In this document: in pieces, positions 3,285-34,278 of the stretch | Layout: each line of letters begins with the position of its first letter | How positions within the stretch are numbered: the stretch's first letter is position 1 | Assembly: GCA_945872425.1 (NCBI GenBank) | Contig: CAMBZE010000003.1 | Span: 938-64,937 of the forward strand | From: Methylotenera oryzisoli | Lineage (GTDB): Bacteria > Pseudomonadota > Gammaproteobacteria > Burkholderiales > Methylophilaceae | Length of the DNA stretch: 64,000 nucleotides | Direction of reading: 5' to 3' | The notes under the pieces: model-generated | Databases searched by the model: none | The model's input: only the letters and a program-made list of their open reading frames with translations | Told to the model about the DNA's origin: nothing | Translations under genes and position numbers: made by a program

Positions 3285-3671
3285 ATGCAATTTATAAGTA
3301 AAAAATTATTTTTAAGTTTTGCCATGGCAATATTTTTAGCGGTAACCTTTTCTGGCGCGCATGCCGCACCGCCTAAAAATAAAACCTACACTGAAGATGA
3401 ATTTTTGAATGCATTTAGCGGTAAATCAATGAAAGTCATTACTGAAAAACTGGGGCAACCTTTCAAAAAAGAATTATCGGTTAAGCCATCCGGGGCATCC
3501 ACTGTCATGCTCAAGGCTGGGGCGGACGAGAAAAATTCCAAGCCAGTTAAAGTTGAAATGTGGTATTACAAAAACTTGGTGAAGTATGATCCGAAGCGTA
3601 CTTATAAAGAAACAGAAATTACTTTTGTTAATGACAAAGCCATGAATATTGCATTTTTTAACAATCGGTAA
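3285..3671 (+). CDS. Secreted/periplasmic hypothetical protein (possible SmpA/BamE-like alpha-beta fold)
   Basis: GGAG RBS, Sec signal ending AHA-A, and a 'KLGQP...WYY' pattern reminiscent of SmpA/OmlA-like domains. Confidence 0.6.
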   Translation: MQFISKKLFLSFAMAIFLAVTFSGAHAAPPKNKTYTEDEFLNAFSGKSMKVITEKLGQPFKKELSVKPSGASTVMLKAGADEKNSKPVKVEMWYYKNLVKYDPKRTYKETEITFVNDKAMNIAFFNNR

Positions 3672-3803: not shown

Positions 3804-4862
3804 ATGACGACGAATACTAACTCTTCAGCAGATGCTCCAAAAATTGGTGCGTTTGAGCGCAACCTTACATGGTGGGTGTTGGCTTGCATCATCATTGGCA
3901 TCAGCCTGGGTAAGCTTAACCCTGCATTTTTTCAAGCGGCAGGCAGCATTAAAATTGCCGAAGTGAATTTGATTGTGGCCGTGTTGATTTGGCTGATGAT
4001 TATTCCTATGTTGCTAAAAATCGACTTCGGCGCCATGAGTGATGTATTGCAACATAGCAAAGGCATCGGCGTTACACTTTTTATCAACTGGGTTGTCAAG
4101 CCGTTCTCAATGGCGCTGCTGGCTTGGATATTCATCAGGCACTTATTTGCTGACTATCTGCCAATGGAACAGCTGGATAGTTATATTGCCGGGTTGATTT
4201 TACTTGCCGCCGCGCCATGTACAGCAATGGTGTTCGTATGGAGCGGACTATGTAATGGCGAGCCAAAATTCACGCTTTCTCAGGTCGCTCTCAATGACGC
4301 CATCATGTTATTTGCATTTGCACCTCTTGTAGCCTTGCTGCTCGGGCTATCCAGCATTACGGTTCCCTGGAATACTCTTTTCTTGTCTGTATTGCTGTTT
4401 ATTGTGGTGCCTGTGGTTGTCAGTCAGGTATGGCGCAGGCTGCTGTTATTAAAAGGTCAAAAGGCTTTAGATGAAACGCTTAAGCGCTTGCACCCAATTT
4501 CACTTACCGCATTATTGGTGACTTTGGTTTTGCTGTTTGGCTTTCAAGGGCAGCAGATACTGGCTCAGCCCATGATTATCGGTTTGCTGGCAGTGCCTAT
4601 TACCATTCAGGTTTATTTTAACGCCATGCTTGCTTATTGGCTTAACAAGCAACTGAAAGTTGCGCATTGTGTGGCCGGGCCATCCGCTTTGATAGGCGCT
4701 TCAAATTTCTTTGAATTGGCGGTTGCTACCGCTATTGCCTTGTTTGGTTTTAATTCAGGCGCGGCGCTAGCAACGGTTGTGGGGGTGTTAATAGAAGTGC
4801 CGGTGATGCTGTCGGTTGTATCCATTGTGAATCGCAGTCGTGGTTGGTATGAAGCCAATTAG
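3804..4862 (+). CDS. acr3: Arsenite efflux permease, Acr3 family
   Basis: FERNLTWWV, AAAPCTAMVFVWS (conserved Cys), GASNFFELAVA (conserved Glu), GVLIEVPVML; about 10 hydrophobic segments. Confidence 0.93.
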   Translation: MTTNTNSSADAPKIGAFERNLTWWVLACIIIGISLGKLNPAFFQAAGSIKIAEVNLIVAVLIWLMIIPMLLKIDFGAMSDVLQHSKGIGVTLFINWVVKPFSMALLAWIFIRHLFADYLPMEQLDSYIAGLILLAAAPCTAMVFVWSGLCNGEPKFTLSQVALNDAIMLFAFAPLVALLLGLSSITVPWNTLFLSVLLFIVVPVVVSQVWRRLLLLKGQKALDETLKRLHPISLTALLVTLVLLFGFQGQQILAQPMIIGLLAVPITIQVYFNAMLAYWLNKQLKVAHCVAGPSALIGASNFFELAVATAIALFGFNSGAALATVVGVLIEVPVMLSVVSIVNRSRGWYEAN

Positions 4863-4885: not shown

Positions 4886-4910
4886 AAAAAGCACCCACAG
4901 GGTGCTTTTT
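4886..4910. terminator. Bidirectional intrinsic terminator between convergent acr3 and the PepSY gene
   Basis: aaaaagcaccc-aca-gggtgcttttt perfect hairpin with A/T tracts. Confidence 0.85.
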
Positions 4911-4931: not shown

Positions 4932-5450
4932 TTACTCTATACCGATTTGATAGACTTCTTCCTCTGGTTCTTCTGCCAATTTACCAGTCACTGCATCAAC
5001 TTCCACTTCTACTTCCTTGCCATCAGCAGTTTTGATGTCGAATTCATAAGAAGGGTTGCCATTCGCTTCAACTGAGAACTCGGTTTCAATGATTTCCCCT
5101 GGTTGTTTAGCAAGGGCAGTCTTTTTGGCATCGTCTAGGCTAACCTTGGCTTTGCTCTTGAATGCAGCGTCATCCGCACTGGCAACTTCCATCTCTTCTT
5201 CTGTCACCTTGCCTGACTTGGCATCACACTCAACTTCCCACTCCTTGCCATCTTTACCTTTGATATCGAATTCATAAATGGGCTTACCATTTTCAACTTC
5301 CGCTTCGAGTGAGAGCACTTGGCCTGGGTGTTTTGCCAAAGCCGCTTTCATACAGGTTTCCATTTTTCCAGTATGAGCATGTCCACCGGCGTAAGCTAGT
5401 GTACTCATAAAAGCGGATGCCAAAGCTATTACCACTATTTTCTTGTTCAT
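4932..5450 (-). CDS. lanP: Periplasmic tandem-PepSY protein, lanpepsy (LanP)-like lanthanide-binding candidate
   Basis: Signal peptide (AYA-G); two PepSY repeats (YEFDIKGKDGKEWEVECDAKSG / YEFDIKTADGKEVEVEVDAVTG); about 36 Asp/Glu in the ~150-aa mature chain; C-terminus EEEVYQIGIE. The symbol is by resemblance only. Confidence 0.65.
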   Translation of the reverse strand: MNKKIVVIALASAFMSTLAYAGGHAHTGKMETCMKAALAKHPGQVLSLEAEVENGKPIYEFDIKGKDGKEWEVECDAKSGKVTEEEMEVASADDAAFKSKAKVSLDDAKKTALAKQPGEIIETEFSVEANGNPSYEFDIKTADGKEVEVEVDAVTGKLAEEPEEEVYQIGIE

Positions 5451-5635
5451 TTCAATCTCCTTTGTGACGTTAAAAATAAAAAATTCCCATCTGCTGCAAG
5501 CTTGATTATAATGAGATGTAAATTATTTTTCAAGAAATAACTTATTGATTTATATAGGAATTATGGTTTAATTCAGCCGAATAGTGGCTGTATATAACCA
5601 TATAAATTACCAATTAACTTTAAAGAAATGACGCT

Positions 5636-6277
5636 ATGGATAATGTGCCTGATATTGTTGACTCTGTACTCTACTTTTTAGCGGGATTATCTATCCTGAC
5701 TTGGACTATTTTGATAGTGAAGAGTTATGTGTTTTTGCGGCAAAAGCAAGCCAACATTGAGTTGCTATCCGGTTACGCTGGAGTCACACGTTTAACCAAA
5801 TTGCCTGAAGTGCTATACAAAGCAAAAGGGTCATTAAGCAGCCTTAGCAATAAGGCCATGCATGATCTTATTGCCTGGAACAAGGATGCTTCGCTGGACG
5901 TTAACGTGTTCCACGATATGTTGCGGCAATCATTGCGAGAAGAGCGCCATCGGCAACAAGTGCGCCTGGAAAGCGGTCTGGCTGTACTTGCGAGTATAGG
6001 CTCCACTTCGCCATTTATTGGCTTGTTCGGCACCGTATGGGGCATCATGCATGCGTTGAAAGGTATTTCTGCCTCTGGTTCAGCTGGCTTGGACGTAGTT
6101 GCTGGCCCGATTGGTGAAGCGCTCATTGCCACGGCTGCGGGTATCGCAGCGGCAATTCCCGCAGTGCTTGCCTATAATTATTTTTTACGTCAATCGCGCC
6201 TAGCTGCGGCAGATATGGATCACTTCTCCGAACGCTTACAAATACTGGCTAAACATTCAGATTACAAGGTAGATTAA
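5636..6277 (+). CDS. exbB: MotA/TolQ/ExbB proton channel
   Basis: LASIGSTSPFIGLFGTVWGIM, IGEALIATAAGIAAAIPAVLAYNYF. Confidence 0.92.
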   Translation: MDNVPDIVDSVLYFLAGLSILTWTILIVKSYVFLRQKQANIELLSGYAGVTRLTKLPEVLYKAKGSLSSLSNKAMHDLIAWNKDASLDVNVFHDMLRQSLREERHRQQVRLESGLAVLASIGSTSPFIGLFGTVWGIMHALKGISASGSAGLDVVAGPIGEALIATAAGIAAAIPAVLAYNYFLRQSRLAAADMDHFSERLQILAKHSDYKVD

Positions 6278-6278
6278 C

Positions 6279-6701
6279 ATGTCCATGGATAACCATGCTG
6301 AAGGCGGCATGATGAGCGAGATTAACGTAACACCGTTGGTGGATGTGATGTTGGTATTGCTCACGGTGTTCATTGTCACCGCGCCACTGCTCATGAATTC
6401 AGTGGCGGTCAAACTACCCAAAGTTGCAGCGACCACTTCATTGCAAAAAATGAATGACGTCAAAGTGAGTATTACCTCAGCGACTGAGGTATATATAGAT
6501 GAAACACAAATTGCCGCCTCAACTTTGGAAGCTGAGCTAAGAAAAAGAAATAATAAAGGGGATCTGCAAGTGCAAATCATGGCGGATGAAAGCGTAGCTT
6601 ATCGTGAAGTAGCTAAAGCCATGGCACAAATTCAGCGCGCAGGGGTGAGCAAGTTTACCTTTGTCATGTTGCCAGATAGCACTGTGCAATCTGCCCATTA
6701 G
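6279..6701 (+). CDS. exbD: ExbD/TolR biopolymer transport protein
   Basis: SEINVTPLVDVMLVLLTVFIVTAPL, IMADESVAY. Confidence 0.92.
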   Translation: MSMDNHAEGGMMSEINVTPLVDVMLVLLTVFIVTAPLLMNSVAVKLPKVAATTSLQKMNDVKVSITSATEVYIDETQIAASTLEAELRKRNNKGDLQVQIMADESVAYREVAKAMAQIQRAGVSKFTFVMLPDSTVQSAH

Positions 6702-6724: not shown

Positions 6725-7507
6725 GTGAAGCTATCTCTGAATGAACAACTGCATAATGAGCGGCATGAGTCTGATTCATTTGTAATAAGTCTGGCTTTTG
6801 CTATTTCGTTAGCGCTGCACGTTAGCATTATACTTGCACTACCCTGGATTGAAGCTACCAAAGCAAAACCACCTATTACTATCGTTGCTGAACTTCTACA
6901 ACCCTCACCACCAATAGAAGTTCCAGCAGAACCTAAACCCGTTGAGCCCCCAGTTAAACCAGAGATTGTGAAGGTTGAACGCACACTTACACCTAAGCCA
7001 GACACGCCGGCGCCAAAACCTCAATCCGTAGCGCAACCAGTACTGGCGGCAGAGAATTTGGCACAAGCCCCCAGCGATTACAGCGTGCCTGATATACCAA
7101 AACCCACGATTGTGCCTAACGAGCCAACAGCACCTGCAGCACCGGAGTTGCCTTCAACATCCTTCACAAAGAATGAAATTATCCCAACAACATCCAACAC
7201 CACTTGGGATGACGATGATTTGTGGGGTGAATATGGAAATAATCTACAAAGACAGGTTGAGCGCAATAAACAATACCCAGCCATTGCGCTCAGGCGTGGC
7301 TGGCAGGGTTTGGCAAAAGTACTCGTTCATTTTTCCTCAGAAGGAAAAGCCATCAGTGTCACCATAGGAAAATCAGCGGGGAAGAAATTATTAGATGACC
7401 AAGCCATAGAAATGGTCCAAAAAAGCCTCAATGATTTACCAGTGCCCAATAAATTCAAAGACAGAGAATTCAAGTTAACTATTCCTGTGGATTTTAAGCT
7501 TGAATAG
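6725..7507 (+). CDS. tonB: Energy transducer TonB
   Basis: N-terminal TM with SLALH, Pro-rich spacer, YPAIALRRGWQG, LLDDQAIEMV, IPVDFKL. Confidence 0.9.
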   Translation: MKLSLNEQLHNERHESDSFVISLAFAISLALHVSIILALPWIEATKAKPPITIVAELLQPSPPIEVPAEPKPVEPPVKPEIVKVERTLTPKPDTPAPKPQSVAQPVLAAENLAQAPSDYSVPDIPKPTIVPNEPTAPAAPELPSTSFTKNEIIPTTSNTTWDDDDLWGEYGNNLQRQVERNKQYPAIALRRGWQGLAKVLVHFSSEGKAISVTIGKSAGKKLLDDQAIEMVQKSLNDLPVPNKFKDREFKLTIPVDFKLE

Positions 7508-11974: not shown

Positions 11975-13087
11975 ATGTTAAAAGTAGGTTTTGTCGGTTG
12001 GCGTGGCATGGTGGGTTCAGTCCTCATGCAACGCATGTTGGAAGAAAATGATTTTGCGCTTATCGAGCCACAATTCTTCACTACATCGCAAGTGGGCGGT
12101 AATGGCCCGAATGTGGGCAAAGAAACGCCTGCATTGCTGGATGCCAAAGATATTAACGCACTCAAAGCGATGGATGCGATTGTGTCATGCCAGGGCGGAG
12201 ACTACACCACTGAAATATTCCCAAAGTTACGTAATTCTGGTTGGAACGGTCATTGGATTGACGCTGCCTCAACTTTACGCATGGAAAAAGATGCGGTCAT
12301 TATTCTAGATCCTGTGAATATGCATGTGATACAGAATGCACTACATAATGGCGGCAAGAACTGGGTCGGTGGTAACTGTACAGTTTCATTGATGCTGATG
12401 GCCTTAAATGGTTTATTCAAGGCAGACCTGGTCGAGTGGGCAACCTCCATGACTTATCAGGCGGCTTCTGGTGCAGGCGCACAAAACATGCGCGAGCTAC
12501 TTAAGCAAATGGGTGAAGCGCACCGCGTGGCCAGCGACCTTTTAAAAGACCCGGCCTCTGCGATTTTAGATATTGACCGTGAAGTGGCAGGCACGCTGCG
12601 TGATGACGGTTTTCCAACAGCCCATTTTGGTGTGCCATTAGCCGGTAGTTTGATTCCATGGATTGATAAAGACTTGGGCAATGGGCAAAGTAAAGAGGAA
12701 TGGAAGGGTGGCGTTGAAACTAACAAAATTTTAGGGCGCGAAACTAATCCGATCTTGATAGATGGCCTTTGTGTGCGTATTGGCGCAATGCGCTGTCATA
12801 GCCAGGCCTTAACGATCAAGCTGAAGAAAAATGTACCGCTAGATGAAATAAATCAGATGTTGTCTGAAGCGAATCAATGGGCGAAAGTTGTGCCAAATGA
12901 GCGTGAGTCTAGTATGCGTGAACTCACGCCAGCTGCGGTGACCGGGACTTTAATCACCCCAGTGGGTAGAATCCGTAAGCTAAATATGGGTAATGATTAT
13001 TTATCTGCCTTTACTGTAGGTGACCAGCTGCTATGGGGTGCGGCAGAGCCGTTGCGTCGTATGTTGCGAATTTTAATAGAAAAATAA
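11975..13087 (+). CDS. asd: Aspartate-semialdehyde dehydrogenase
   Basis: [47 protein letters not shown]. Confidence 0.98.
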
Positions 13088-13250
13088 TTTGTAAAGTTCT
13101 TCAGTTGTTGTGAGGCTGACAACAGTCAAAGTCGCCAGCCAGATAGCAGTTGAAAGGTGTGTGCATTATGAGCTTGCATCCCTAACTATTAGATGTTAGT
13201 TTTATACTGAAAATATTGGATTGATTATTGGATGGACTAAAGGTAGTAAT

Positions 13251-15035
13251 GTGCATAAATCAAAAATAAAGCAATTTTCATTGGTAGCCTGCTTGGCATT
13301 TATGCCGTTTTTTGGTTTTGCCGCAGACTTAGGCGAGTTAAATGTAACCTCAAGTTTAGGTGAGCCACTAAAAGCTGAAGTGGAGCTTCTGTCAGTCACT
13401 CCAGAAGAGCTTTCAACGCTGGTTGCCGTCATTGCTTCTGAAGAAGCGTATGTAGCTCAAGGCATTGCCCGTCTAGGAATCCATAACGATATTAGAGTGG
13501 ATTTGACTAAAAATGCAGATGGCTTACCTGTATTGACGTTGTATTCCAGTCAGCCTATTAGTGATCCGTATCTGGACATGTTAATTCAGGTAAATTGGGC
13601 ATCGGGTCGCATACTGCGTGAATATGCTGTTTTGTTAGATTCACCAGAATATAAACAATCAATCAGTGAAGCGTCATTAGCACCGATTTCTCCTCCATCT
13701 GTAGCCAGCAATGCAAATAAAGATGAAGCCTCTGGCGAGGTAAATCCCGATACCTTTGATGGCGAGCTTGCAAAACAAGTTGGTAATCAAACTGATGAGC
13801 AACAAGACAAATATGATACAACTGCAGATACAGCGCAGTTAACCACAGTGCGCAGCGACACCTTGATCTCAATTGCAAGAAAAATGCAAGTCGATGGCGT
13901 GAGCTTGGATCAAATGCTCGTGGCTTTGTTTAAAAATAATAAAGAAGCATTTTCTGATGGCAATATGAACCGACTTAAAGTCGGTAAAATTATTAAGGCG
14001 CCTTCCAAAGACAGTTTCATGGCAATTGACGCACAGCAGGCTAAGCAGTCTGTGAAAGTGCACACTGCAAACTGGAATGAATATCGTAGAGCTCTAGCAG
14101 ATACTGTGGCTAAAATTTCTGCTGGCGTAGAGAGTGAGCAAAAACAATCGGCATCTGGAAAAATTGTTGCCGCTGAGGATAATGCTACCTTGGTTAAATC
14201 AGGTTCACGGGATGTTGTAAAACTATCTGCCGGTGAGAAAGATTTTGGAAAAGGCAGCAAAGAGAGTGGTCAAGAGTTTGACGCTAAAATTTCAGCTCTG
14301 CAAGAAGAAGCTATCGCACGTGAAAAGGCATTGAAGGAATCGCAAGAGCGTACGACTGTTTTAGAGAAACAAATTGAGGATATGCAAAAATTATTGGCTT
14401 TGAAAAACCAAGCGATGACAGATTTGCAAAAAAAGGTTGAAAATCCAACTAGCACAGCAGCTGAAATTGAAAAAATGCCACCTATTGTAAAAACTCCCGT
14501 TGAGTTTGTATTAGAGGCATCATTCATTGAAGGTCTGTTAGATAATGTAGATATGGCATTGCTTGGGGGCACTGCCGGTGTTACATTGCTAGGCATCGGC
14601 TGGATGTTCTTACGTAATAAGCGTAGAAGAACCCTAGATAGCTTTAAGCACGGTACGGTAACTTCTGGCGATTTGCGTGCTAACACCATATTTGGCAATA
14701 CTACTGATAATGCAAGTGCCTCAGACACTACATTTGATTTGCCACTAATGAATGAACTAGATACAAAGGTTTTTGATTTTTCTGCAATTAACCTAGATTT
14801 GGGCAAGGACGAGGATCAAGCAGTTGTGGGGCAATCATTAAATGATTTATCTATTGAACAGTCAGTGCAGATTGCACCTGAACATCAGGATATTGAAATT
14901 AAATTTGATTTAGTGGCTGCGTATATCGATATGGATGATAAAGATGGCGCGCGTGAATTGCTGGATGAAGTGATTAAAGAAGGCGGTCCTCAGCAACGGC
15001 AACGCGCCGAGCAGTTGTTAGCAAGTTTGGCATAA
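13251..15035 (+). CDS. fimV: FimV/HubP polar landmark protein (GTG 13251 likely; ORF track 13221)
   Basis: LGELNVTSSLGEPLKAEV, LysM-like region (QMLVALFKNN..AF..GNMNRLKVG), coiled coil, TM segment, C-terminal DLVAAYIDMDDKDGARELLDEV; asd-fimV-truA synteny. Confidence 0.9.
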   Translation: MHKSKIKQFSLVACLAFMPFFGFAADLGELNVTSSLGEPLKAEVELLSVTPEELSTLVAVIASEEAYVAQGIARLGIHNDIRVDLTKNADGLPVLTLYSSQPISDPYLDMLIQVNWASGRILREYAVLLDSPEYKQSISEASLAPISPPSVASNANKDEASGEVNPDTFDGELAKQVGNQTDEQQDKYDTTADTAQLTTVRSDTLISIARKMQVDGVSLDQMLVALFKNNKEAFSDGNMNRLKVGKIIKAPSKDSFMAIDAQQAKQSVKVHTANWNEYRRALADTVAKISAGVESEQKQSASGKIVAAEDNATLVKSGSRDVVKLSAGEKDFGKGSKESGQEFDAKISALQEEAIAREKALKESQERTTVLEKQIEDMQKLLALKNQAMTDLQKKVENPTSTAAEIEKMPPIVKTPVEFVLEASFIEGLLDNVDMALLGGTAGVTLLGIGWMFLRNKRRRTLDSFKHGTVTSGDLRANTIFGNTTDNASASDTTFDLPLMNELDTKVFDFSAINLDLGKDEDQAVVGQSLNDLSIEQSVQIAPEHQDIEIKFDLVAAYIDMDDKDGARELLDEVIKEGGPQQRQRAEQLLASLA

Positions 15036-20225: not shown

Positions 20226-21578
20226 ATGTCTAGCCAATTGGCAGCTAAAGATTTACCGTCTTGGCTAAGCCACATTGAGCGTTTGCATCCGAAATCAATT
20301 GCAATGGGTTTGGAGCGGGTTAGGTGCGTTATTCAGCGGCTGGAATTACAGCTAAATTTCAAAATCATCACCGTTGCCGGCACCAACGGCAAAGGCTCAA
20401 CATGCGCAATGCTGGCTCAAATTTATTCGCAAGCCGGTTATTCTGTAGGTTGTTATACCTCGCCCCATTTGATGCGCTACAACGAACGCGTTCGCGTTAA
20501 CGGGAGGGAAGTCAGTGATGAGTCGCTTTGCGAAGCATTTGCCGCCGTTGAGGCTGCGCGACAGGATGGAGAATCAATCCCGCTGACTTATTTTGAAGTT
20601 GGCACCTTAGCCGCAATGTGGCATTTTACACAAGCTGATATTGATGTTGCGATTCTGGAAATTGGATTAGGTGGCAGGTTAGATGCAGTTAATGCCTTTG
20701 AACCCGATTGTTCTATTGTGACTAATGTTGATTTAGACCATCAAGAGTTTTTAGGCGATACGCGCGAGAAAATCGGTTTTGAAAAAGCTGGGGTATATCG
20801 TCAATCAGTCCCCGCAATTTGCGGCGACAATAATCCGCCACAAAGTTTAATGGATTATGCCCAGAAAATTCATGCTGATTTCAAGTGCATCAATCGTGAT
20901 TTCAATTATGTATTATCCGCATCGGGTTGGGACTATTGGTCACATGGGCAAGCGGTGTACACGCTGCCACTGCCTGCGCTGACTGGCCGTTATCAGCTTG
21001 ATAATGCTTCATGCGTAATAACAGCCGTTGAGTCTCTGCAAGCGAGTTTGCCGGTGACAACAGAATCTATTGCTAACGCAATGCAGCAAGTATCACTCGC
21101 CGGGCGCTTCCAAACCGTAGCCAAATCTCCTTGGATAATTTTAGATGTGGCACATAACCCGCATGCTGCAAAAGCGCTGGCTGAAAACCTTGTTACACTC
21201 AAAGTTGAGTCGAAAAACGAAAATCAGAGAAAAAATACCGATGGTAAAACCGTGGCAGTATTTGCAATGCTGGCAGATAAAGACATAAAAGGGGTTGTTA
21301 ATGCGGTCAAGAGCGAGATTGACGCCTGGTATGTCGCGAGTATTGATCATGCGCGTGGGGCATTAGCCCCCGATCTGGCTGTTATTATTGCTGAAGCCAG
21401 CCCAAGAGCTACAATTAAAATTTTCGATAGCGCCGCTGATGCCTGTAAGCAAGCACGTATTGATACAGAAGCCTGTATTGATAGAAATGAAAATGATAAA
21501 ATAGTGGCGTTTGGTTCATTTTTTACCGTTTCAAGTGTGATGCAATACCTGAACGAATACGAAAATACACATTTTTAA
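20226..21578 (+). CDS. folC: Dihydrofolate/folylpolyglutamate synthase (ATG 20226 likely)
   Basis: TVAGTNGKGST, YTSPHL, LEIGLGGRLDAVN, LDVAHNP, FGSF. Confidence 0.96.
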   Translation: MSSQLAAKDLPSWLSHIERLHPKSIAMGLERVRCVIQRLELQLNFKIITVAGTNGKGSTCAMLAQIYSQAGYSVGCYTSPHLMRYNERVRVNGREVSDESLCEAFAAVEAARQDGESIPLTYFEVGTLAAMWHFTQADIDVAILEIGLGGRLDAVNAFEPDCSIVTNVDLDHQEFLGDTREKIGFEKAGVYRQSVPAICGDNNPPQSLMDYAQKIHADFKCINRDFNYVLSASGWDYWSHGQAVYTLPLPALTGRYQLDNASCVITAVESLQASLPVTTESIANAMQQVSLAGRFQTVAKSPWIILDVAHNPHAAKALAENLVTLKVESKNENQRKNTDGKTVAVFAMLADKDIKGVVNAVKSEIDAWYVASIDHARGALAPDLAVIIAEASPRATIKIFDSAADACKQARIDTEACIDRNENDKIVAFGSFFTVSSVMQYLNEYENTHF

Positions 21579-21588
21579 GGACGCAGCA

Positions 21589-22197
21589 ATGCCCTCTGAC
21601 TTACCTAATGAACAAGAGCTGTTACTTAAAAAGCGCGCACATCGCCGACTGGTGGGTGCAATAGCACTCGTGCTGTTGATGGTAATTGTTCTGCCGCAAG
21701 TATTGCAAGATCGTGCTGCTATTACACAGCAAGAAGCCATCAAAATTACGATGTCTGATGCGGTTGATGAGCCTAACCTAGAACCTGCTACTGATAAGAA
21801 TTCTGTGGCTCTTCAGGAGGCTGAAGTTTTAGCGCCTCAGCAAGAAGTTGTTGTTAGTGTAGAACCTGCTATTGAAAATATCATTGCAAATAAAGACGTA
21901 GAAAATAACAAAACTGAGCCTAAAAAATCTGAAATCTCACAAGTTGCAGCTTCTCAAAACCAAAGCGAGTATTTCACGGTGCAAGTGGGTGTGTACTCAG
22001 ATGCTGCCAATGTAAAACGATTGCAAGATCAATTAAAGCAAGCAGGGTTTAACGCTTATACAGAAAAAATTATGACGCCAAAAGGTGAAAGTATTCGCCT
22101 TAAAGCTGGCAACTTTACATCACGTCAGGACGCAGTTAATGCGTTGGGCAAACTAAAAGCAATAGGGTTGTCGGGAGTTGTCATTGACAATGACTAA
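21589..22197 (+). CDS. dedD: SPOR-domain cell division protein DedD
   Basis: KRAHRRLVGAIAL followed by a TM segment, C-terminal SPOR (VQVGVYS...LKQAGF); folC-dedD-cvpA-purF synteny. Confidence 0.9.
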   Translation: MPSDLPNEQELLLKKRAHRRLVGAIALVLLMVIVLPQVLQDRAAITQQEAIKITMSDAVDEPNLEPATDKNSVALQEAEVLAPQQEVVVSVEPAIENIIANKDVENNKTEPKKSEISQVAASQNQSEYFTVQVGVYSDAANVKRLQDQLKQAGFNAYTEKIMTPKGESIRLKAGNFTSRQDAVNALGKLKAIGLSGVVIDND

Positions 22198-22224
22198 CGT
22201 TAAGGGAACACTGAGACAGTCGCA

Positions 22225-22716
22225 ATGACAAGTTTTGATTATGCTGTACTCACAATTGTAGGGCTTTCTGTCATATTTAGTGTAATGCGTGGTATGGCGA
22301 GAGAAGTGATTGCTATTTTAGGGTGGGTCGCTGCATTTTATGTAGCTAGAACCTATACCAATCAGCTTTTGCCCATGATGCCGGCAGATATTCCGACCGA
22401 ATCACTACGAGTGCTGGCCGCATTTTTGCTGCTTTTTCTGGCAACGCTGTTGCTGGCTAGCTTGTTAGGCATTGCAATCTCGGCAATTTTTAAAAAAATC
22501 GGACTAGGCTGGCTTAATCGGTTGTTAGGTGCCTTATTTGGCACGGTTCGTGGATTGCTTATTGTTTGTGTGCTGGTGTTTTTGGCAGGCCTTACTGAAA
22601 TACCCAAAGATGCTCGTTGGCGGAATGCGATGTTTAGCGCGCCAATTGAAGCCTTGGTGGTCAGCATGTTGCCATGGATACCTGAAAACATTGCTAAGTA
22701 TGTTAAATACGACTAA
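22225..22716 (+). CDS. cvpA: Colicin V production family membrane protein
   Basis: MTSFDYA, RGMAREV, NRLLGALFGTVRG. Confidence 0.93.
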   Translation: MTSFDYAVLTIVGLSVIFSVMRGMAREVIAILGWVAAFYVARTYTNQLLPMMPADIPTESLRVLAAFLLLFLATLLLASLLGIAISAIFKKIGLGWLNRLLGALFGTVRGLLIVCVLVFLAGLTEIPKDARWRNAMFSAPIEALVVSMLPWIPENIAKYVKYD

Positions 22717-22821
22717 ATTAACATCTTTAGATTTTCTTTTCACGGGCTTAAATAATGCCATTGAAAATATCTTTAAGTAATACAAAAAGTAATACAAAAT
22801 TAATCAGTTAAGGTTTTATTC

Positions 22822-24366
22822 ATGTGCGGAATTATAGGCATTGTAGGTAAAAATCCAGTTAACCAATTGTTGTATGATGGGTTGCTGGTGTTGCAGCACA
22901 GGGGGCAAGATGCCGCAGGTATCGTGACTTGTGATGGCAACACGTTTTTTATGCATAAAAATAACGGATTGGTCAAAGATGTATTTCAAACTCGCCATAT
23001 GCGTAGTTTGGTTGGCAATGCAGGTATTGCCCATGTGAGATACCCAACAGCAGGCTCTTCTAACGCAGCTGAAGCTCAGCCGTTTTATGTGAATTCACCG
23101 TTTGGTATCGTGTTAGGTCACAACGGTAATTTAACCAATTCCGAGCAGTTAAAATCAGAAATGTTCCGTCAAGATTTACGGCATATCAATACCAGTTCAG
23201 ATTCTGAAGTATTGCTTAACGTGCTGGCACACGAAATTGAAAAAACCTCGCGTAACGCAGTACTCAATACCGATATGGCTTTTGACGCAGTTGCTGGCGT
23301 ACATAAGCGTTGCAAAGGCGCGTATGCTGTTGTGGCGATGATTGCTAATTTTGGTTTGCTTGCATTCCGCGATCCCAATGGCATACGCCCATTGGTCATC
23401 GGCAAAGGCGAGACAGATAAAGGCACAGAGTATATCGTTGCTTCTGAGAGCGTGGCTTTGGATGTATTGGGTTTCAAAGTGTTGCGGGATGTTGAGCCTG
23501 GTGAGGCGATATTTATTGATATGGATGGCAATATGTATTCACGTCAGTGTGCCGAAGATGCAAAATTGAATCCATGTATTTTTGAATATGTTTATTTGGC
23601 GCGACCTGATTCAGTCATTGATGGCGTTTCTGTCTATCAGACACGCTTAGACATGGGTAAAAGTCTGGCTGAAAAAATTAAGCGCGAATGGTCAGATAAA
23701 AAAATCGATGTGGTGATTCCGATTCCTGATACTAGCCGTCCTAGCGCACTGCAAGTCGGCATCGCTTTGGGGTTGGATTATCGCGAAGGATTTATTAAAA
23801 ATCGTTATATTGGCCGCACGTTCATTATGCCAGGCCAAGCATTACGTAAAAAATCCGTACGCCAAAAACTTAATCCGATTGGCATTGAGTTTAAAGGAAA
23901 AAACGTCTTGCTAGTGGATGATTCGATTGTACGCGGCACTACGTCTCAACAAATTGTTCAAATGGCACGTGATGCAGGCGCTAATAAAGTGTATTTTGCT
24001 TCTGCAGCACCGCCTGTGCGTTTCCCCAATGTCTATGGTATTGATATGCCAAGTCGCGATGAATTGCTGGCAACGGGTCGTACCGATGAAGAAATTTGCA
24101 AGGAAATAGGTGCTGATGCGCTGATTTACCAGGATTTAGATGCATTGGTGGCTGGCATTAAATTAAGTAATCCAAAAATCAAAGCCTTTGATTGTTCTTG
24201 TTTTGATGGAAAATATGTCACGGGCGATATCAGTGAAGCCTATTTTGCTAAAATTGAATCTGCGCGGGGCGATGGCAAAAAAAACCTGAATCAGACAAAC
24301 TCAAGCACTCAGTTGGATCTGAACTTGCTTAATGTCAATGAACTGGAGTTGGAAGATGGCGCGTAG
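22822..24366 (+). CDS. purF: Amidophosphoribosyltransferase
   Basis: N-terminal [33 protein letters not shown]. Confidence 0.98.
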
Positions 24367-24371
24367 GCTTA

Positions 24372-24527
24372 AGGAAACCCTGTGCCCATCAGGGTTGCGA
24401 TAAATTTGCGTGCTTACGTATGTGTGCTCCTTGGCTTCGTAGAATAACTACGACCTGCGTCGCACGCCGCGCAATCATCACAAATTTATTCGCAACGTGG
24501 CTCATGGTGATTTAATCAGTGCTTCCT
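24372..24527. mobile_element. 156-bp MITE-like element (family B) with nested palindromes
   Basis: Terminal imperfect inverted repeats aggaaaccctg / cagtgcttcct. Inner arms ttgcgataaatttg / caaatttattcgcaa and central hairpin tcgtag-aataa-ctacga. The right ~30 bp recur as an exact reverse complement at ~45600-45629. Confidence 0.65.
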
Positions 24528-24573
24528 TAGAGTAGTAAGCGATCAACATGAATTGTTTTAGCTTATTTTATGC

Positions 24574-24602
24574 TTGACTCTGTTTTAACTTGGGTCTACC
24601 AT
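24574..24602 (+). promoter_or_regulatory. sigma70-type promoter of the metZ leader
   Basis: TTGACT-N17-TACCAT; the predicted start site (~24609) coincides with the 5' end of the riboswitch P1. Confidence 0.7.
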
Positions 24603-24605
24603 GAA

Positions 24606-24686
24606 AATGCGCTGATTTGAGTTTGCCAACATTAATCAAGGCCACACTCAGCTTGCGGGCGCATTATAAACACAGCTAAAGCGAGT
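24606..24686 (+). ncRNA. SAM-II (SAM-alpha-type) riboswitch
   Basis: P1 aatgcgc/gcgcatt, conserved GCGCTGATTT, TTGC, ATAAA and AGCTAAA segments of the SAM-II pattern, a variable inserted hairpin, and position upstream of metZ. Confidence 0.85.
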
Positions 24687-24694
24687 AAAAAAAG

Positions 24695-24730
24695 AACCCG
24701 CTTTGGCACATTGCTTGAGCGGGTTTTTTT
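24695..24730 (+). terminator. Intrinsic terminator, expression platform of the SAM-II riboswitch
   Basis: aacccgct...agcgggtt stem followed by a T tract. Confidence 0.8.
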
Positions 24731-24754
24731 ATGCCCGGAATAATTGAGATGATT

Positions 24755-25942
24755 ATGAACAAACTACAATTTTACCCAGAAACATTAAGCGTGCGTGCTG
24801 GTAGTGAGTCCACTGAATTTGGCGAGAACTCCGAAGCATTGTTTTTAAATTCCAGCTTTAGATTTAAGAGTGCGGCACAAGCGGCGGCTCGCTTTGGCGG
24901 TACAGAGCCGGGAAATATCTATTCGCGTTTTACTAATCCCACGGTGACCATGTTTCAAAATAAACTGGCGGCGTTGGAGGGGGCTGAGCAATGTGTGGCA
25001 ACATCCAGTGGGATGTCTGCGATTTTAGCGTGCGTCATGGGCTTGTGTTCAGCTGGTGATCATGTGGTAGCTTCACGTAGTATTTTTGGCACTAGCGTGC
25101 AGTTATTTGGCAACATTCTAAAACGCTGGGGTTTGGAGGTAACGTTTGTTTCATTGACCAATCCTGATGAGTGGCAGGCGGCAGTCACGCCAAAAACCAA
25201 GCTGTTTTTTGTGGAAACGCCTTCTAATCCGTTAACGGAAGTATGTGATATTCGAGTACTCGCTGATATTGCTCATCAAGCAGGCGCACATTTGGTCGTG
25301 GATAACTGCTTTTGCACGCCAGCTATTCAGCAGCCGTTAGCACTGGGGGCTGATGTTGTGATTCATTCAGCCACTAAATATATCGACGGCCAGGGCAGAT
25401 GTTTAGGTGGCGCAGTGTTGGGTTCCAAAGTGTTGATGGAGCCTGTGTATGGTTTTTTACGTACAGCGGGCGTTACCATGAGCGCATTTAATGCATGGGT
25501 GTTCTTAAAAGGGTTGGAAACGCTATATATCCGCATGGAAGCACATGCCAGGAATGCTTTGGCATTGGCCACCTGGCTGGAGGCGCAGCCTCAGGTGGCG
25601 CAGGTGTATTACCCTGGCTTAGAGTCTCACCCACAGCATGCGTTGGCGATGCGCCAGCAAACCAATGGCGGTGGCATTGTTACTTTTGAGGTTAAACCAA
25701 AGTCAGGTCAAACCCCACAGGAGGCGGCTTGGGCGCTGATTGATGCCACGCAGTTGATTTCAATCACTGCTAATTTAGGCGATGCGAAGAGTACCATTAC
25801 GCATCCGGCGACCACGACGCACAGTCGCGTAACCCCAGAAGCGCGTGCAGCAGCTGGTATTAGCGATGGCTTGGTAAGAATTGCCGTAGGTTTGGAGCAT
25901 ATTGAAGACTTGAAGGCGGATTTGGTTTTGCTGACAAAATAA
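24755..25942 (+). CDS. metZ: O-succinylhomoserine sulfhydrylase (ATG 24755 or 24749 more likely than 24731)
   Basis: YSRFTNPTV, ATSSGMSAI, VETPSNP, VVDNCF, HSATKYIDGQGR (PLP Lys), NLGDAKSTITHPATTTH. Confidence 0.95.
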   Translation: MNKLQFYPETLSVRAGSESTEFGENSEALFLNSSFRFKSAAQAAARFGGTEPGNIYSRFTNPTVTMFQNKLAALEGAEQCVATSSGMSAILACVMGLCSAGDHVVASRSIFGTSVQLFGNILKRWGLEVTFVSLTNPDEWQAAVTPKTKLFFVETPSNPLTEVCDIRVLADIAHQAGAHLVVDNCFCTPAIQQPLALGADVVIHSATKYIDGQGRCLGGAVLGSKVLMEPVYGFLRTAGVTMSAFNAWVFLKGLETLYIRMEAHARNALALATWLEAQPQVAQVYYPGLESHPQHALAMRQQTNGGGIVTFEVKPKSGQTPQEAAWALIDATQLISITANLGDAKSTITHPATTTHSRVTPEARAAAGISDGLVRIAVGLEHIEDLKADLVLLTK

Positions 25943-33507: not shown

Positions 33508-34278
33508 ATGAACGCAATCACAAACAATCAGCTACCTTGGACACGTGAAGAGTTTGAGGCAAAGTTACGTGAAAAAGGTAAGGGCTACCATATCCATCAT
33601 CCGATTCATGTGTTGATGTATGAAGGCAAACTTACACAACAGCAAATGCAGGCTTGGGTAGCCAATCGTTATTACTACCAGATTGCGATCCCAATGAAAG
33701 ATGCAGCAATTTTGTCTAATTGCCAAGATCGTGAAATTCGCCGTGGCTGGATTCAACGTATTTTTGATCATGATGGTAGCGGGCATATCGCAGAAGGCGG
33801 CGAGGGCGGCATTGAAGCGTGGATTCATCTAGGTGCTGCAGTGGGTTTGAGCCGTGAAGATATCATGTCACTTAAACTGGTTGCGCCAGGCACTACATTT
33901 GCCGTGGATGCTTATATCAATTTTGCAAAACAACGCCCTTGGCAAGAATCTGTATGTTCAAGCTTGACTGAACTATTTGCACCGCATATCCACCAGCAAC
34001 GTATTGATGCATGGCCTGAAATGTATCCTTGGATTAACGCAGAAGGGATGCAGTATTTCAAAAACCGCCTGACACAAGCGCGTCGTGACGTAGAACAAGG
34101 CTTGCATGTGACATTGGATTATTTTGGTCAAAGCCGCGCATTGCAAGAACGTGCATTGGAAATTTTGCAATTCAAGTTGAATGTATTATGGGTCATGGCC
34201 GATGCCATCATGTTGCAATGCACTGATATTAAAGTGGAAGGGCGCGATTACTTGCGTCAGCCAGTGTTTGAGGTTTAA
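33508..34278 (+). CDS. pqqC: PQQ synthase PqqC
   Basis: [39 protein letters not shown]. Confidence 0.98.

Follow-up and report, generated by a model that had tools for sequence, protein, structure and literature searches.

To our knowledge, methylotrophs have so far yielded just two non-enzymatic proteins that bind lanthanides, and lanpepsy (LanP) is the second of them. The protein of Methylobacillus flagellatus KT (Mfla_0908 = Mfla_1052) is secreted through the Sec pathway and has a mature chain of about 150 residues, two PepSY domains, a Cys pair and a pI of about 4.5 (Hemmann et al., 2023, PMC9988556). Its crystal structures, both apo and with lanthanides bound, appear under the name 'MIF' (PDB 9VY3-9VYA) in a preprint that names the metal ligands discussed below, and according to which the structure is in use as an 'atomic ruler' for separating adjacent rare earths (bioRxiv 10.1101/2025.10.21.683075). 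Here we compare LanP with the product of a gene at positions 4932-5450 of a 64,000-nucleotide stretch of the Methylotenera oryzisoli genome (assembly GCA_945872425.1, contig CAMBZE010000003.1, positions 938 to 64,937 of the forward strand; hereafter the window). We call this protein LanP-B, and our results place it in a second branch of the lanpepsy family, very probably paralogous to LanP, in which the lysines of the metal channel have been replaced.

Two other systems are useful for comparison. LanM resembles LanP-B in its proposed role, being a small periplasmic protein with several Ln3+-selective sites, but it has an unrelated EF-hand fold and its sites are dispersed. UipA of Microbacterium (PDB 7ATH) shares with LanP-B the use, predicted in the latter, of acidic PepSY domains as metal-binding surfaces; as described, it differs from the LanP-type barrel in being membrane-anchored and in forming a domain-swapped dimer with an open concave sheet.

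Likeness of LanP-B to M. flagellatus LanP

The gene is a 172-codon reading frame that begins with ATG and lies on the minus strand, which an earlier first-pass annotation of the window had not stated. That annotation had described a signal peptide, two PepSY repeats and two Cys, and all of these are present:

4932-5450, minus strand: lanP-B coding sequence, a 172-aa secreted tandem-PepSY protein of clade B of the lanpepsy family (open reading frame, Pfam, 9VY3 match, tree)
5388-5450, minus strand: signal peptide codons, residues 1-21, cut after AYA (read from sequence; pLDDT of the structural model)
5184-5366, minus strand: PepSY domain 1, residues 29-89, helix and strands 1-4 (Pfam, model, 9VY3 mapping)
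4941-5144, minus strand: PepSY domain 2, residues 103-170, helix and strands 5-8 (Pfam, model, 9VY3 mapping)

Read by eye, the N-terminus, MNKKIVVIALASAFMSTLAYA/GG (the slash marks cleavage), is of the Sec/signal peptidase I type, with a basic n-region, a hydrophobic core and an AYA (AXA) motif; a lipobox is absent, as is any second hydrophobic segment, i.e., there is no membrane anchor. The Pfam PepSY profile (PF03413) matches the product at E 2.7e-30 in two stretches, the first covering residues 31-86, and about 60 residues of one half of the protein can be aligned with the other half. Asp and Glu make up 36 of the 151 residues of the mature chain (residues 22-172), or 23.8%, close to the 24% given in the first pass, and Lys and Arg make up 18; the pI is 4.5. 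Of the acidic clusters that had been noted, EEEME lies at residues 84-88 and EEPEEE at residues 160-165. In a ranking of 1373 six-frame open reading frames of at least 120 aa from the whole assembly, LanP-B came first in Asp plus Glu content, and a second lanpepsy-family protein of the genome, described below, came third. Given this top rank, the acidity of LanP-B is not a product of chance.

A phmmer search of the PDB gave a single strong match for LanP-B, the LanP structure (9vy3_A) at E 1.1e-45, with residues 29-171 aligned to residues 11-152 of the chain and interrupted once, by a one-residue gap close to the C-terminus. The alignment takes in 142 of the crystallised chain's 153 residues and 143 of the 151 mature residues of LanP-B, and across its 132 ungapped columns the two proteins are 57% identical. 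With this E-value and near-full-length coverage, LanP-B passes the filter previously used for LanP homologs (E <= 1e-20, coverage of about 85% or more; Hemmann et al., 2023, PMC9988556). At E <= 10 the search returned three chains, 9vy3_A, 8bl3_A and 6d0t_A, and UipA was not among them.

We next mapped the LanP ligands onto LanP-B, using a constant offset (LanP-B residue = LanP residue + 18); the numbering of the preprint equals the 9VY3 chain index, as checked with ten named residues. The text of the preprint names as bridging ligands D54, E68, E106, E108, E118 and E132, and as further ligands E104 (site 5), E66 and E142 (site 1), and E35 and E56 (an extra site for mid-size ions) (bioRxiv 10.1101/2025.10.21.683075). 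The bridging residues correspond in LanP-B to E72, E86, E124, S126, E136 and E150, and the others to E122, E84, E160, E53 and E74, respectively. Nine of these 11 positions are thus identical, one carries a conservative exchange (D54 to E72) and one has lost its carboxylate (E108 to S126). The likeness to LanP claimed in the first pass therefore holds, and with most named ligands retained LanP-B stands as a candidate lanthanide binder.

An AlphaFold2 (AF2) model of LanP-B, built from a 54-sequence alignment, has a mean predicted local distance difference test score (pLDDT) of 89.5, with values of 94-98 over residues 31-170; the score is low over residues 1-28 and high from residue 29. The modelled order of helix, four strands, helix and four strands is the order described for LanP. 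A Foldseek search of a PDB copy without 9VY3 gave as top matches the generic tandem-PepSY folds 4exr and YpmB, at low TM-scores of 0.29-0.39 that speak neither for nor against a barrel. The same entry, 4exr, was the best HHpred match of LanP (Hemmann et al., 2023, PMC9988556). For LanP-B, closure of the two PepSY sheets into an eight-stranded pseudo-C2 barrel like that of LanP is predicted. Mapping onto 9VY3 would place S47, E49, E51, E53, E60, D62, E70, E72, E74, D76, E84, E86 and E88 of PepSY domain 1 in the lumen, with the two Cys of the protein, Cys33 and Cys75, in the same domain. The corresponding residues of domain 2 are E122, E124, S126 (E108 in LanP), E128, E136, D138, E146, E148 (K130 in LanP), E150 and D152, followed by the C-terminal EEPEEE.

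Two branches of the lanpepsy family

The first-pass annotation had also called LanP-B an ortholog of LanP, and this claim did not survive phylogenetic analysis. The best 80 of 185 matches in species-representative genomes were taken as the locus set, their genes were translated, and trees were built together with the 9VY3 chain, giving an unrooted tree of 82 sequences. A quick and a careful tree both contain a bipartition of 49 sequences, including LanP-B (clade B), versus 33 (clade A), supported by ultrafast bootstrap (UFBoot) and SH-aLRT values of 100 and 99. Clade A comprises LanP, its Methylobacillus orthologs, the copies of gammaproteobacterial methanotrophs and the second lanpepsy-family gene of the M. 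oryzisoli genome:

Contig C44, 9415-9942 (= L002, 1474-2001), plus strand: second lanpepsy-family gene of the genome, 175 aa (homology, tree)

This C44 copy is 55% identical to LanP-B, which it matches in architecture, signal peptide and Cys pair. Against 9VY3 its score exceeds that of LanP-B (176 vs. 159 bits), and it retains K29, K33, K130, A52, D54 and E108 as in LanP. Several Methylophilus genomes likewise hold one copy of each clade. Because these genomes and the present one carry both sides of the split, the split reflects an old duplication and not speciation, and judging from the sequences we are confident that LanP-B is a paralog rather than an ortholog of LanP.

Several positions distinguish the two clades (LanP numbering):

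Position 29: clade A, K in 33 of 33; clade B, S in 33 and T in 16
Position 33: clade A, K in 33 of 33; clade B, E in 49 of 49
Position 52: clade A, mostly A; clade B, E in 49 of 49
Position 54: clade A, D in 25 and E in 8; clade B, E in 49 of 49
Position 108: clade A, E in 33 of 33; clade B, S in 28, E in 11, A in 6 and G in 3
Position 130: clade A, K in 33 of 33; clade B, E in 48 of 49
Positions 144 and 145 (C-terminal mouth): clade A, varied; clade B, mostly E

LanP-B itself differs from LanP by K29 to S, K33 to E, K130 to E, A52 to E, E108 to S and Q69 to M, and at the C-terminal mouth of the channel it reads EEPEEE where LanP has EA-NQE. The preprint describes positions 29, 33 and 130 as reaching into the ligand shell, where the three lysines hydrogen-bond ligand carboxylates and stabilise the stacked ions; it attributes the 4.3 Å spacing of the ions in particular to K130 and the bridging carboxylates (bioRxiv 10.1101/2025.10.21.683075). 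Judging by strand periodicity, position 52 would point to the same side of strand 3 as D54 and E56 do. The predicted clade-B channel is therefore lysine-free and holds about three extra carboxylates, and that of LanP-B additionally lacks one bridging Glu. Across the aligned mature region, clade-B proteins have a mean net charge of about -19 to -20, compared with about -15 in the two betaproteobacterial groups of clade A and -17 in the methanotroph group.

Clade B also varies outside the channel. In its members from L048 (M. flagellatus strain L1B) and L045 (Pseudomethylobacillus aquaticus), positions 6001-6537, a lipobox (LSAC) takes the place of the plain signal peptide, and some LanP-B proteins are thus probably lipid-anchored. 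Both Cys are replaced jointly (C15 to A, C57 to V) in a minority of clade B, 8 or 9 proteins out of 49 (e.g., L018, L020, L022, L046, L072 and L053), a co-variation that is as expected for a disulfide pair.

Of the 201 Methylophilaceae genomes sampled, 146 have a lanpepsy homolog, and roughly a fifth of these 146 hold two or more. Some genomes carry the clade-B type only (e.g., L048/G202 and L008/G203). Others carry only the LanP-side type, including M. flagellatus A12 (G201). A 3.0-Mb single-contig genome of the same family (G125) has two identical LanP copies 143 kb apart (C1:956023-956532 and 1099055-1099564) and no clade-B copy; we took it as M. flagellatus KT-like because the duplicate matches the published Mfla_0908 = Mfla_1052. 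The closest homologs of LanP-B come from Methylotenera and other Methylophilaceae. Among about 45 genomes of the same genus that were sampled, none has a clade-B-level match to it (best identity 58% or less), and close ExbB/ExbD proteins (82-85% identity) occur in just one, G208, whose contig stops 286 nt upstream of exbB. This patchiness is real in the sample and would fit loss or transfer alike. Horizontal transfer of lanP-B was considered and set aside; GC and third-codon-position GC (GC3) of lanP-B and of the neighbouring exbBD-tonB genes are ordinary.

A literature search of limited coverage returned no described LanP subfamily split in Methylophilaceae, nor a systematic loss of the three lysines. 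The elements new relative to the literature covered are the A/B split and the loss of LanP's three channel lysines in clade B, while the occurrence of a LanP homolog in Methylophilaceae is itself expected. The lanpepsy family of Methylophilaceae consists of two deep branches, of which the unstudied one swaps all three channel lysines for Ser/Thr or Glu, often without one bridging Glu. Clade B thereby offers a ready natural variant series for exploring what sets stoichiometry and selectivity in a protein that is being engineered for rare-earth separation.

Genomic setting and probable role of LanP-B

The M. oryzisoli assembly (1.49 Mb in 81 contigs, 98% complete, 46% GC) encodes one pyrroloquinoline quinone (PQQ) dehydrogenase above the methanol/ethanol-family cut-off. 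It lies on contig C17 and has the WDYDG (DYD) motif, a mark of lanthanide-dependent XoxF enzymes. No other canonical methanol dehydrogenase was found in the genome, which contains in addition two divergent PQQ-dehydrogenase-like frames on contigs C80 and C81. A PQQ biosynthesis gene is present in the window:

33508-34278: pqqC

The XoxF-type enzyme and pqqC together support a lanthanide-dependent, PQQ-making methylotroph as the host, in agreement with the first pass. The hosts of LanP and LanP-B are thus alike in being Methylophilaceae methylotrophs with XoxF. A crude EF-hand pattern detected no multi-EF-hand, LanM-like open reading frame in the genome, which fits the observation that LanP hosts are without LanM (Hemmann et al., 2023, PMC9988556).

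Unlike the gene for LanP, lanP-B lies beside an exbBD-tonB system, 185 bp from its first gene:

5636-6277, plus strand: exbB, divergent from lanP-B (Pfam MotA_ExbB 1.6e-33; NCBIfam tolQ and exbB both below their cut-offs)
6279-6701, plus strand: exbD (Pfam ExbD 6.4e-27)
6725-7507, plus strand: tonB, with a Pro-rich linker and a TonB_C domain (Pfam TonB_C 1.8e-14; TIGR01352)

The only other MotA/ExbD pair in the genome belongs to a Tol-Pal cluster (ybgC-tolQRA-tolB-pal-cpoB) on contig C35, so the genes beside lanP-B are the sole TonB energiser set of this genome. The C44 copy, with its LanP-type channel residues, differs from LanP-B here as well, having no TonB system near; it is found downstream of a 616-aa translational-GTPase-like gene (typA/BipA type, judging by its N-terminus alone).

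To place this arrangement in context, genes within 5 kb were clustered at 82 loci (the 80 fetched and the genome's own two copies). ExbB/ExbD/TonB genes occur near 10 of them, gammaproteobacterial methanotrophs included, six in clade B and four in clade A (Methylocaldum, Methylobacter, Methylomonas and Methylomicrobium); lanP-B is paired with exbBD-tonB in two Methylotenera-like metagenome-assembled genomes (MAGs), L008 and L012, as it is in M. oryzisoli. One cluster of TonB-dependent receptors (cluster 5) is represented near 12 loci (eight clade-B, four clade-A), xoxF near about 14, with clade-B genes among them, and a HAMP/HisKA_3 kinase with a LuxR-type response regulator near many. In G125, a sigma-54 response regulator comes immediately after the best homolog of this receptor cluster (64% identity). 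The same receptor/sigma-54 regulator arrangement has been published for Mfla_1253/1254, a La-induced receptor required for the La response. In Ca. Methylopumilus, a receptor, a kinase and a regulator come first, then two small genes, lanP-B and finally tilS-accA-dnaE. In M. oryzisoli, a La-type TonB-dependent receptor ortholog (46-57% identical to cluster-5 receptors) adjoins tilS-accA-dnaE at a contig end (C7:1-8879). As lanP-B and the kinase and regulator fill this slot in Ca. Methylopumilus, the cassette is split in the present genome. The recurrent linkage of both clades with TonB systems, La-type receptors, xoxF and two-component regulators strengthens the case for a role in lanthanide trafficking.

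We consider it likely that LanP-B is a periplasmic Ln3+-binding protein of the LanP family. After removal of the signal peptide, its two PepSY domains would pack into an eight-stranded, pseudo-dimeric barrel with a lumen lined by Glu and Asp, which may hold several stacked Ln3+ ions. Ln3+ would enter through a TonB-dependent receptor energised by the neighbouring ExbB-ExbD-TonB, and LanP-B would buffer the ions or hand them on between receptor and XoxF, its lysine-free channel conferring properties unlike those of LanP. Co-regulation of lanP-B with exbBD-tonB may be part of this scheme. More tentative, and in our view with the smaller chance of being correct, is the further proposal that LanP-B represents a functionally distinct Ln-binding subfamily, differing from LanP in ion number or size selectivity and acting as a periplasmic partner of TonB-dependent Ln uptake. 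The retention of both paralogs in a streamlined 1.5-Mb genome argues that their roles are not redundant. Should the subfamily be distinct, its channel, with no lysines, often no Glu108 and added carboxylates both at the C-terminal mouth and at positions 33, 52 and 130, could differ from the LanP 'atomic ruler' in ion number or size selectivity. A genome-reduced host with XoxF as its sole canonical methanol dehydrogenase and two lanpepsy copies also seems a good place to seek the phenotype that LanP deletion did not reveal.

Several points limit this reading. Deletion of LanP in M. flagellatus shows no phenotype. Ligand conservation was scored on 11 named residues of the 19 in LanP, and the orientation of the LanP-B lumen is deduced from homology and strand periodicity. 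The first pass had named a loss of acidic ligands among the findings that would speak against its reading, and such loss is slight: one of the six bridging carboxylates is gone (E108 to S126) and the rest remain. All three channel lysines of LanP are replaced, however (K29 by S47, K33 by E51, K130 by E148), and the ion-stacking geometry may therefore differ or fail. TonB systems carry many substrates, and exbBD-tonB adjoins only six of the 49 clade-B loci. No Fur box was found in a scan of the lanP-B/exbB intergenic region, where the best match was 12/19, a level common in the AT-rich window. No sigma-54 promoter pattern was present upstream of lanP-B, the C44 copy, xoxF or the receptor, and lanP-B shares no motif with xoxF, as 10-mers from these four upstream regions yielded only ribosome-binding-site context and A/T-rich words. 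A literature search of limited coverage found no published expression data for clade B.

Part of this evidence can be read in favour of other explanations. The main rival holds that LanP-B has kept the LanP fold for another or non-specific cargo (Ca2+, Fe3+, another hard cation or an actinide) and serves general TonB uptake. Its appeal lies in the position of lanP-B, which adjoins a general TonB energiser and not xoxF or a receptor, in a lysine-free channel that is more negative and has lost E108, and in UipA, whose PepSY domains are described as binding other metals, uranyl and Fe3+. LanP has a very similar ligand set, however, and it rejects Fe3+, Fe2+ and Zn2+ and binds Ca2+ weakly, with a strong preference for Ln3+; elsewhere, moreover, clade-B genes do adjoin the La-type receptor and xoxF. 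Methylotroph lineages account for almost all close homologs. The Fur-box scan (best match 12/19) gave no sign that iron regulates lanP-B, and we regard the other-cargo explanation as unlikely.

Lower still is the standing of one-to-one orthology with LanP (Mfla_0908), under which sites and role would be unchanged. The near-full-length and almost gapless alignment, the shared domain order and Cys pair and the retention of most ligands all speak for it, and where the clade-B type occurs alone it may fill the same role. The strongly supported clade split tells against it, as do the higher-scoring C44 copy on the LanP side, the paired copies of Methylophilus, five clade-diagnostic channel substitutions and the restriction of G125 and A12 to the other type, so that orthology is very improbable. 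Hardly credible, in our judgement, is the view that LanP-B is an ordinary PepSY protein whose role does not involve metals (protease inhibitor or envelope-associated) and whose acidity is incidental. The name of the Pfam family would suggest it, as would the labels commonly given to such proteins, 'peptidase M4 propeptide' and 'YkoI', but no peptidase gene lies near lanP-B, the carboxylates invariant across the 82 sequences are exactly the LanP metal ligands, and no other long open reading frame of the genome is as acidic. Lanthanide binding by LanP-B thus remains the explanation that we prefer.

Control signals and flanking features

Around lanP-B, the following signals and the convergent neighbour were recognised:

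3804-4862, plus strand: ACR3-family arsenite efflux gene (acr3), convergent with lanP-B (TIGR00832, 368 bits, above cut-off)
4886-4910, minus strand: terminator-like hairpin with a stem of 11 bp and a T run after it, between lanP-B and the convergent acr3 (sequence)
5457-5461, minus strand: Shine-Dalgarno AGGAG, 6 nt 5' of the lanP-B ATG (sequence)
5505-5533, minus strand: sigma-70-like promoter for lanP-B, TTGAAA-17-TATAAT, 11/12 consensus (consensus match only)
5562-5602, no strand: imperfect 17-nt inverted repeat with a 7-nt spacer, in the divergent lanP-B/exbB intergenic region (sequence)

The AGGAG, the promoter-like site and the terminator-like hairpin frame lanP-B as an apparent single-gene unit; the number of sigma-70-like sites in the region equals the shuffle expectation. 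The ribosome-binding-site context AGGAGATTGA is a 10-mer shared by lanP-B and the C44 copy. The inverted repeat has a counterpart matching at 30 of 41 positions, at the same intergenic position of the syntenic locus L008 (Methylotenera sp. D1-2020, about 5451-6000), compared with a maximum of 26 in 200 shuffles. We regard it as a candidate shared operator of lanP-B and exbB, and nothing more.

Neither arsR nor arsC was seen among the immediate neighbours of acr3. Further upstream, a gene at 3285-3671 on the plus strand encodes 128 aa, among them a clear signal peptide (MQFISKKLFLSFAMAIFLAVTFSGAHA). Its GC content is 36%, lower than that of its neighbours, and its product has no Pfam or NCBIfam match.

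Elsewhere in the genome, contigs C80 and C81 (about 3 kb each, near-identical) each encode a 610-aa PQQ-dependent dehydrogenase-like lipoprotein that falls below the methanol/ethanol-family cut-off and has WGYDL in place of WDYDG, and they look like two strain variants assembled apart. Contig C17 carries a second TonB_C-like protein (12953-13759, plus strand; 268 aa), which is 43% identical to the TonB of the window over the C-terminal domain and is followed by a 497-aa membrane protein; its gene lies about 9 kb from xoxF-xoxJ-xoxG-like genes (21058-24854). Finally, an element about 110 bp long (GTCATTCCGGCGAAAGCCGGAATCC...GACACCGGC...GGTGTGACAAATAAATCAGCG), REP- or MITE-like in appearance, occurs twice in the 576 bp upstream of the C7 receptor.

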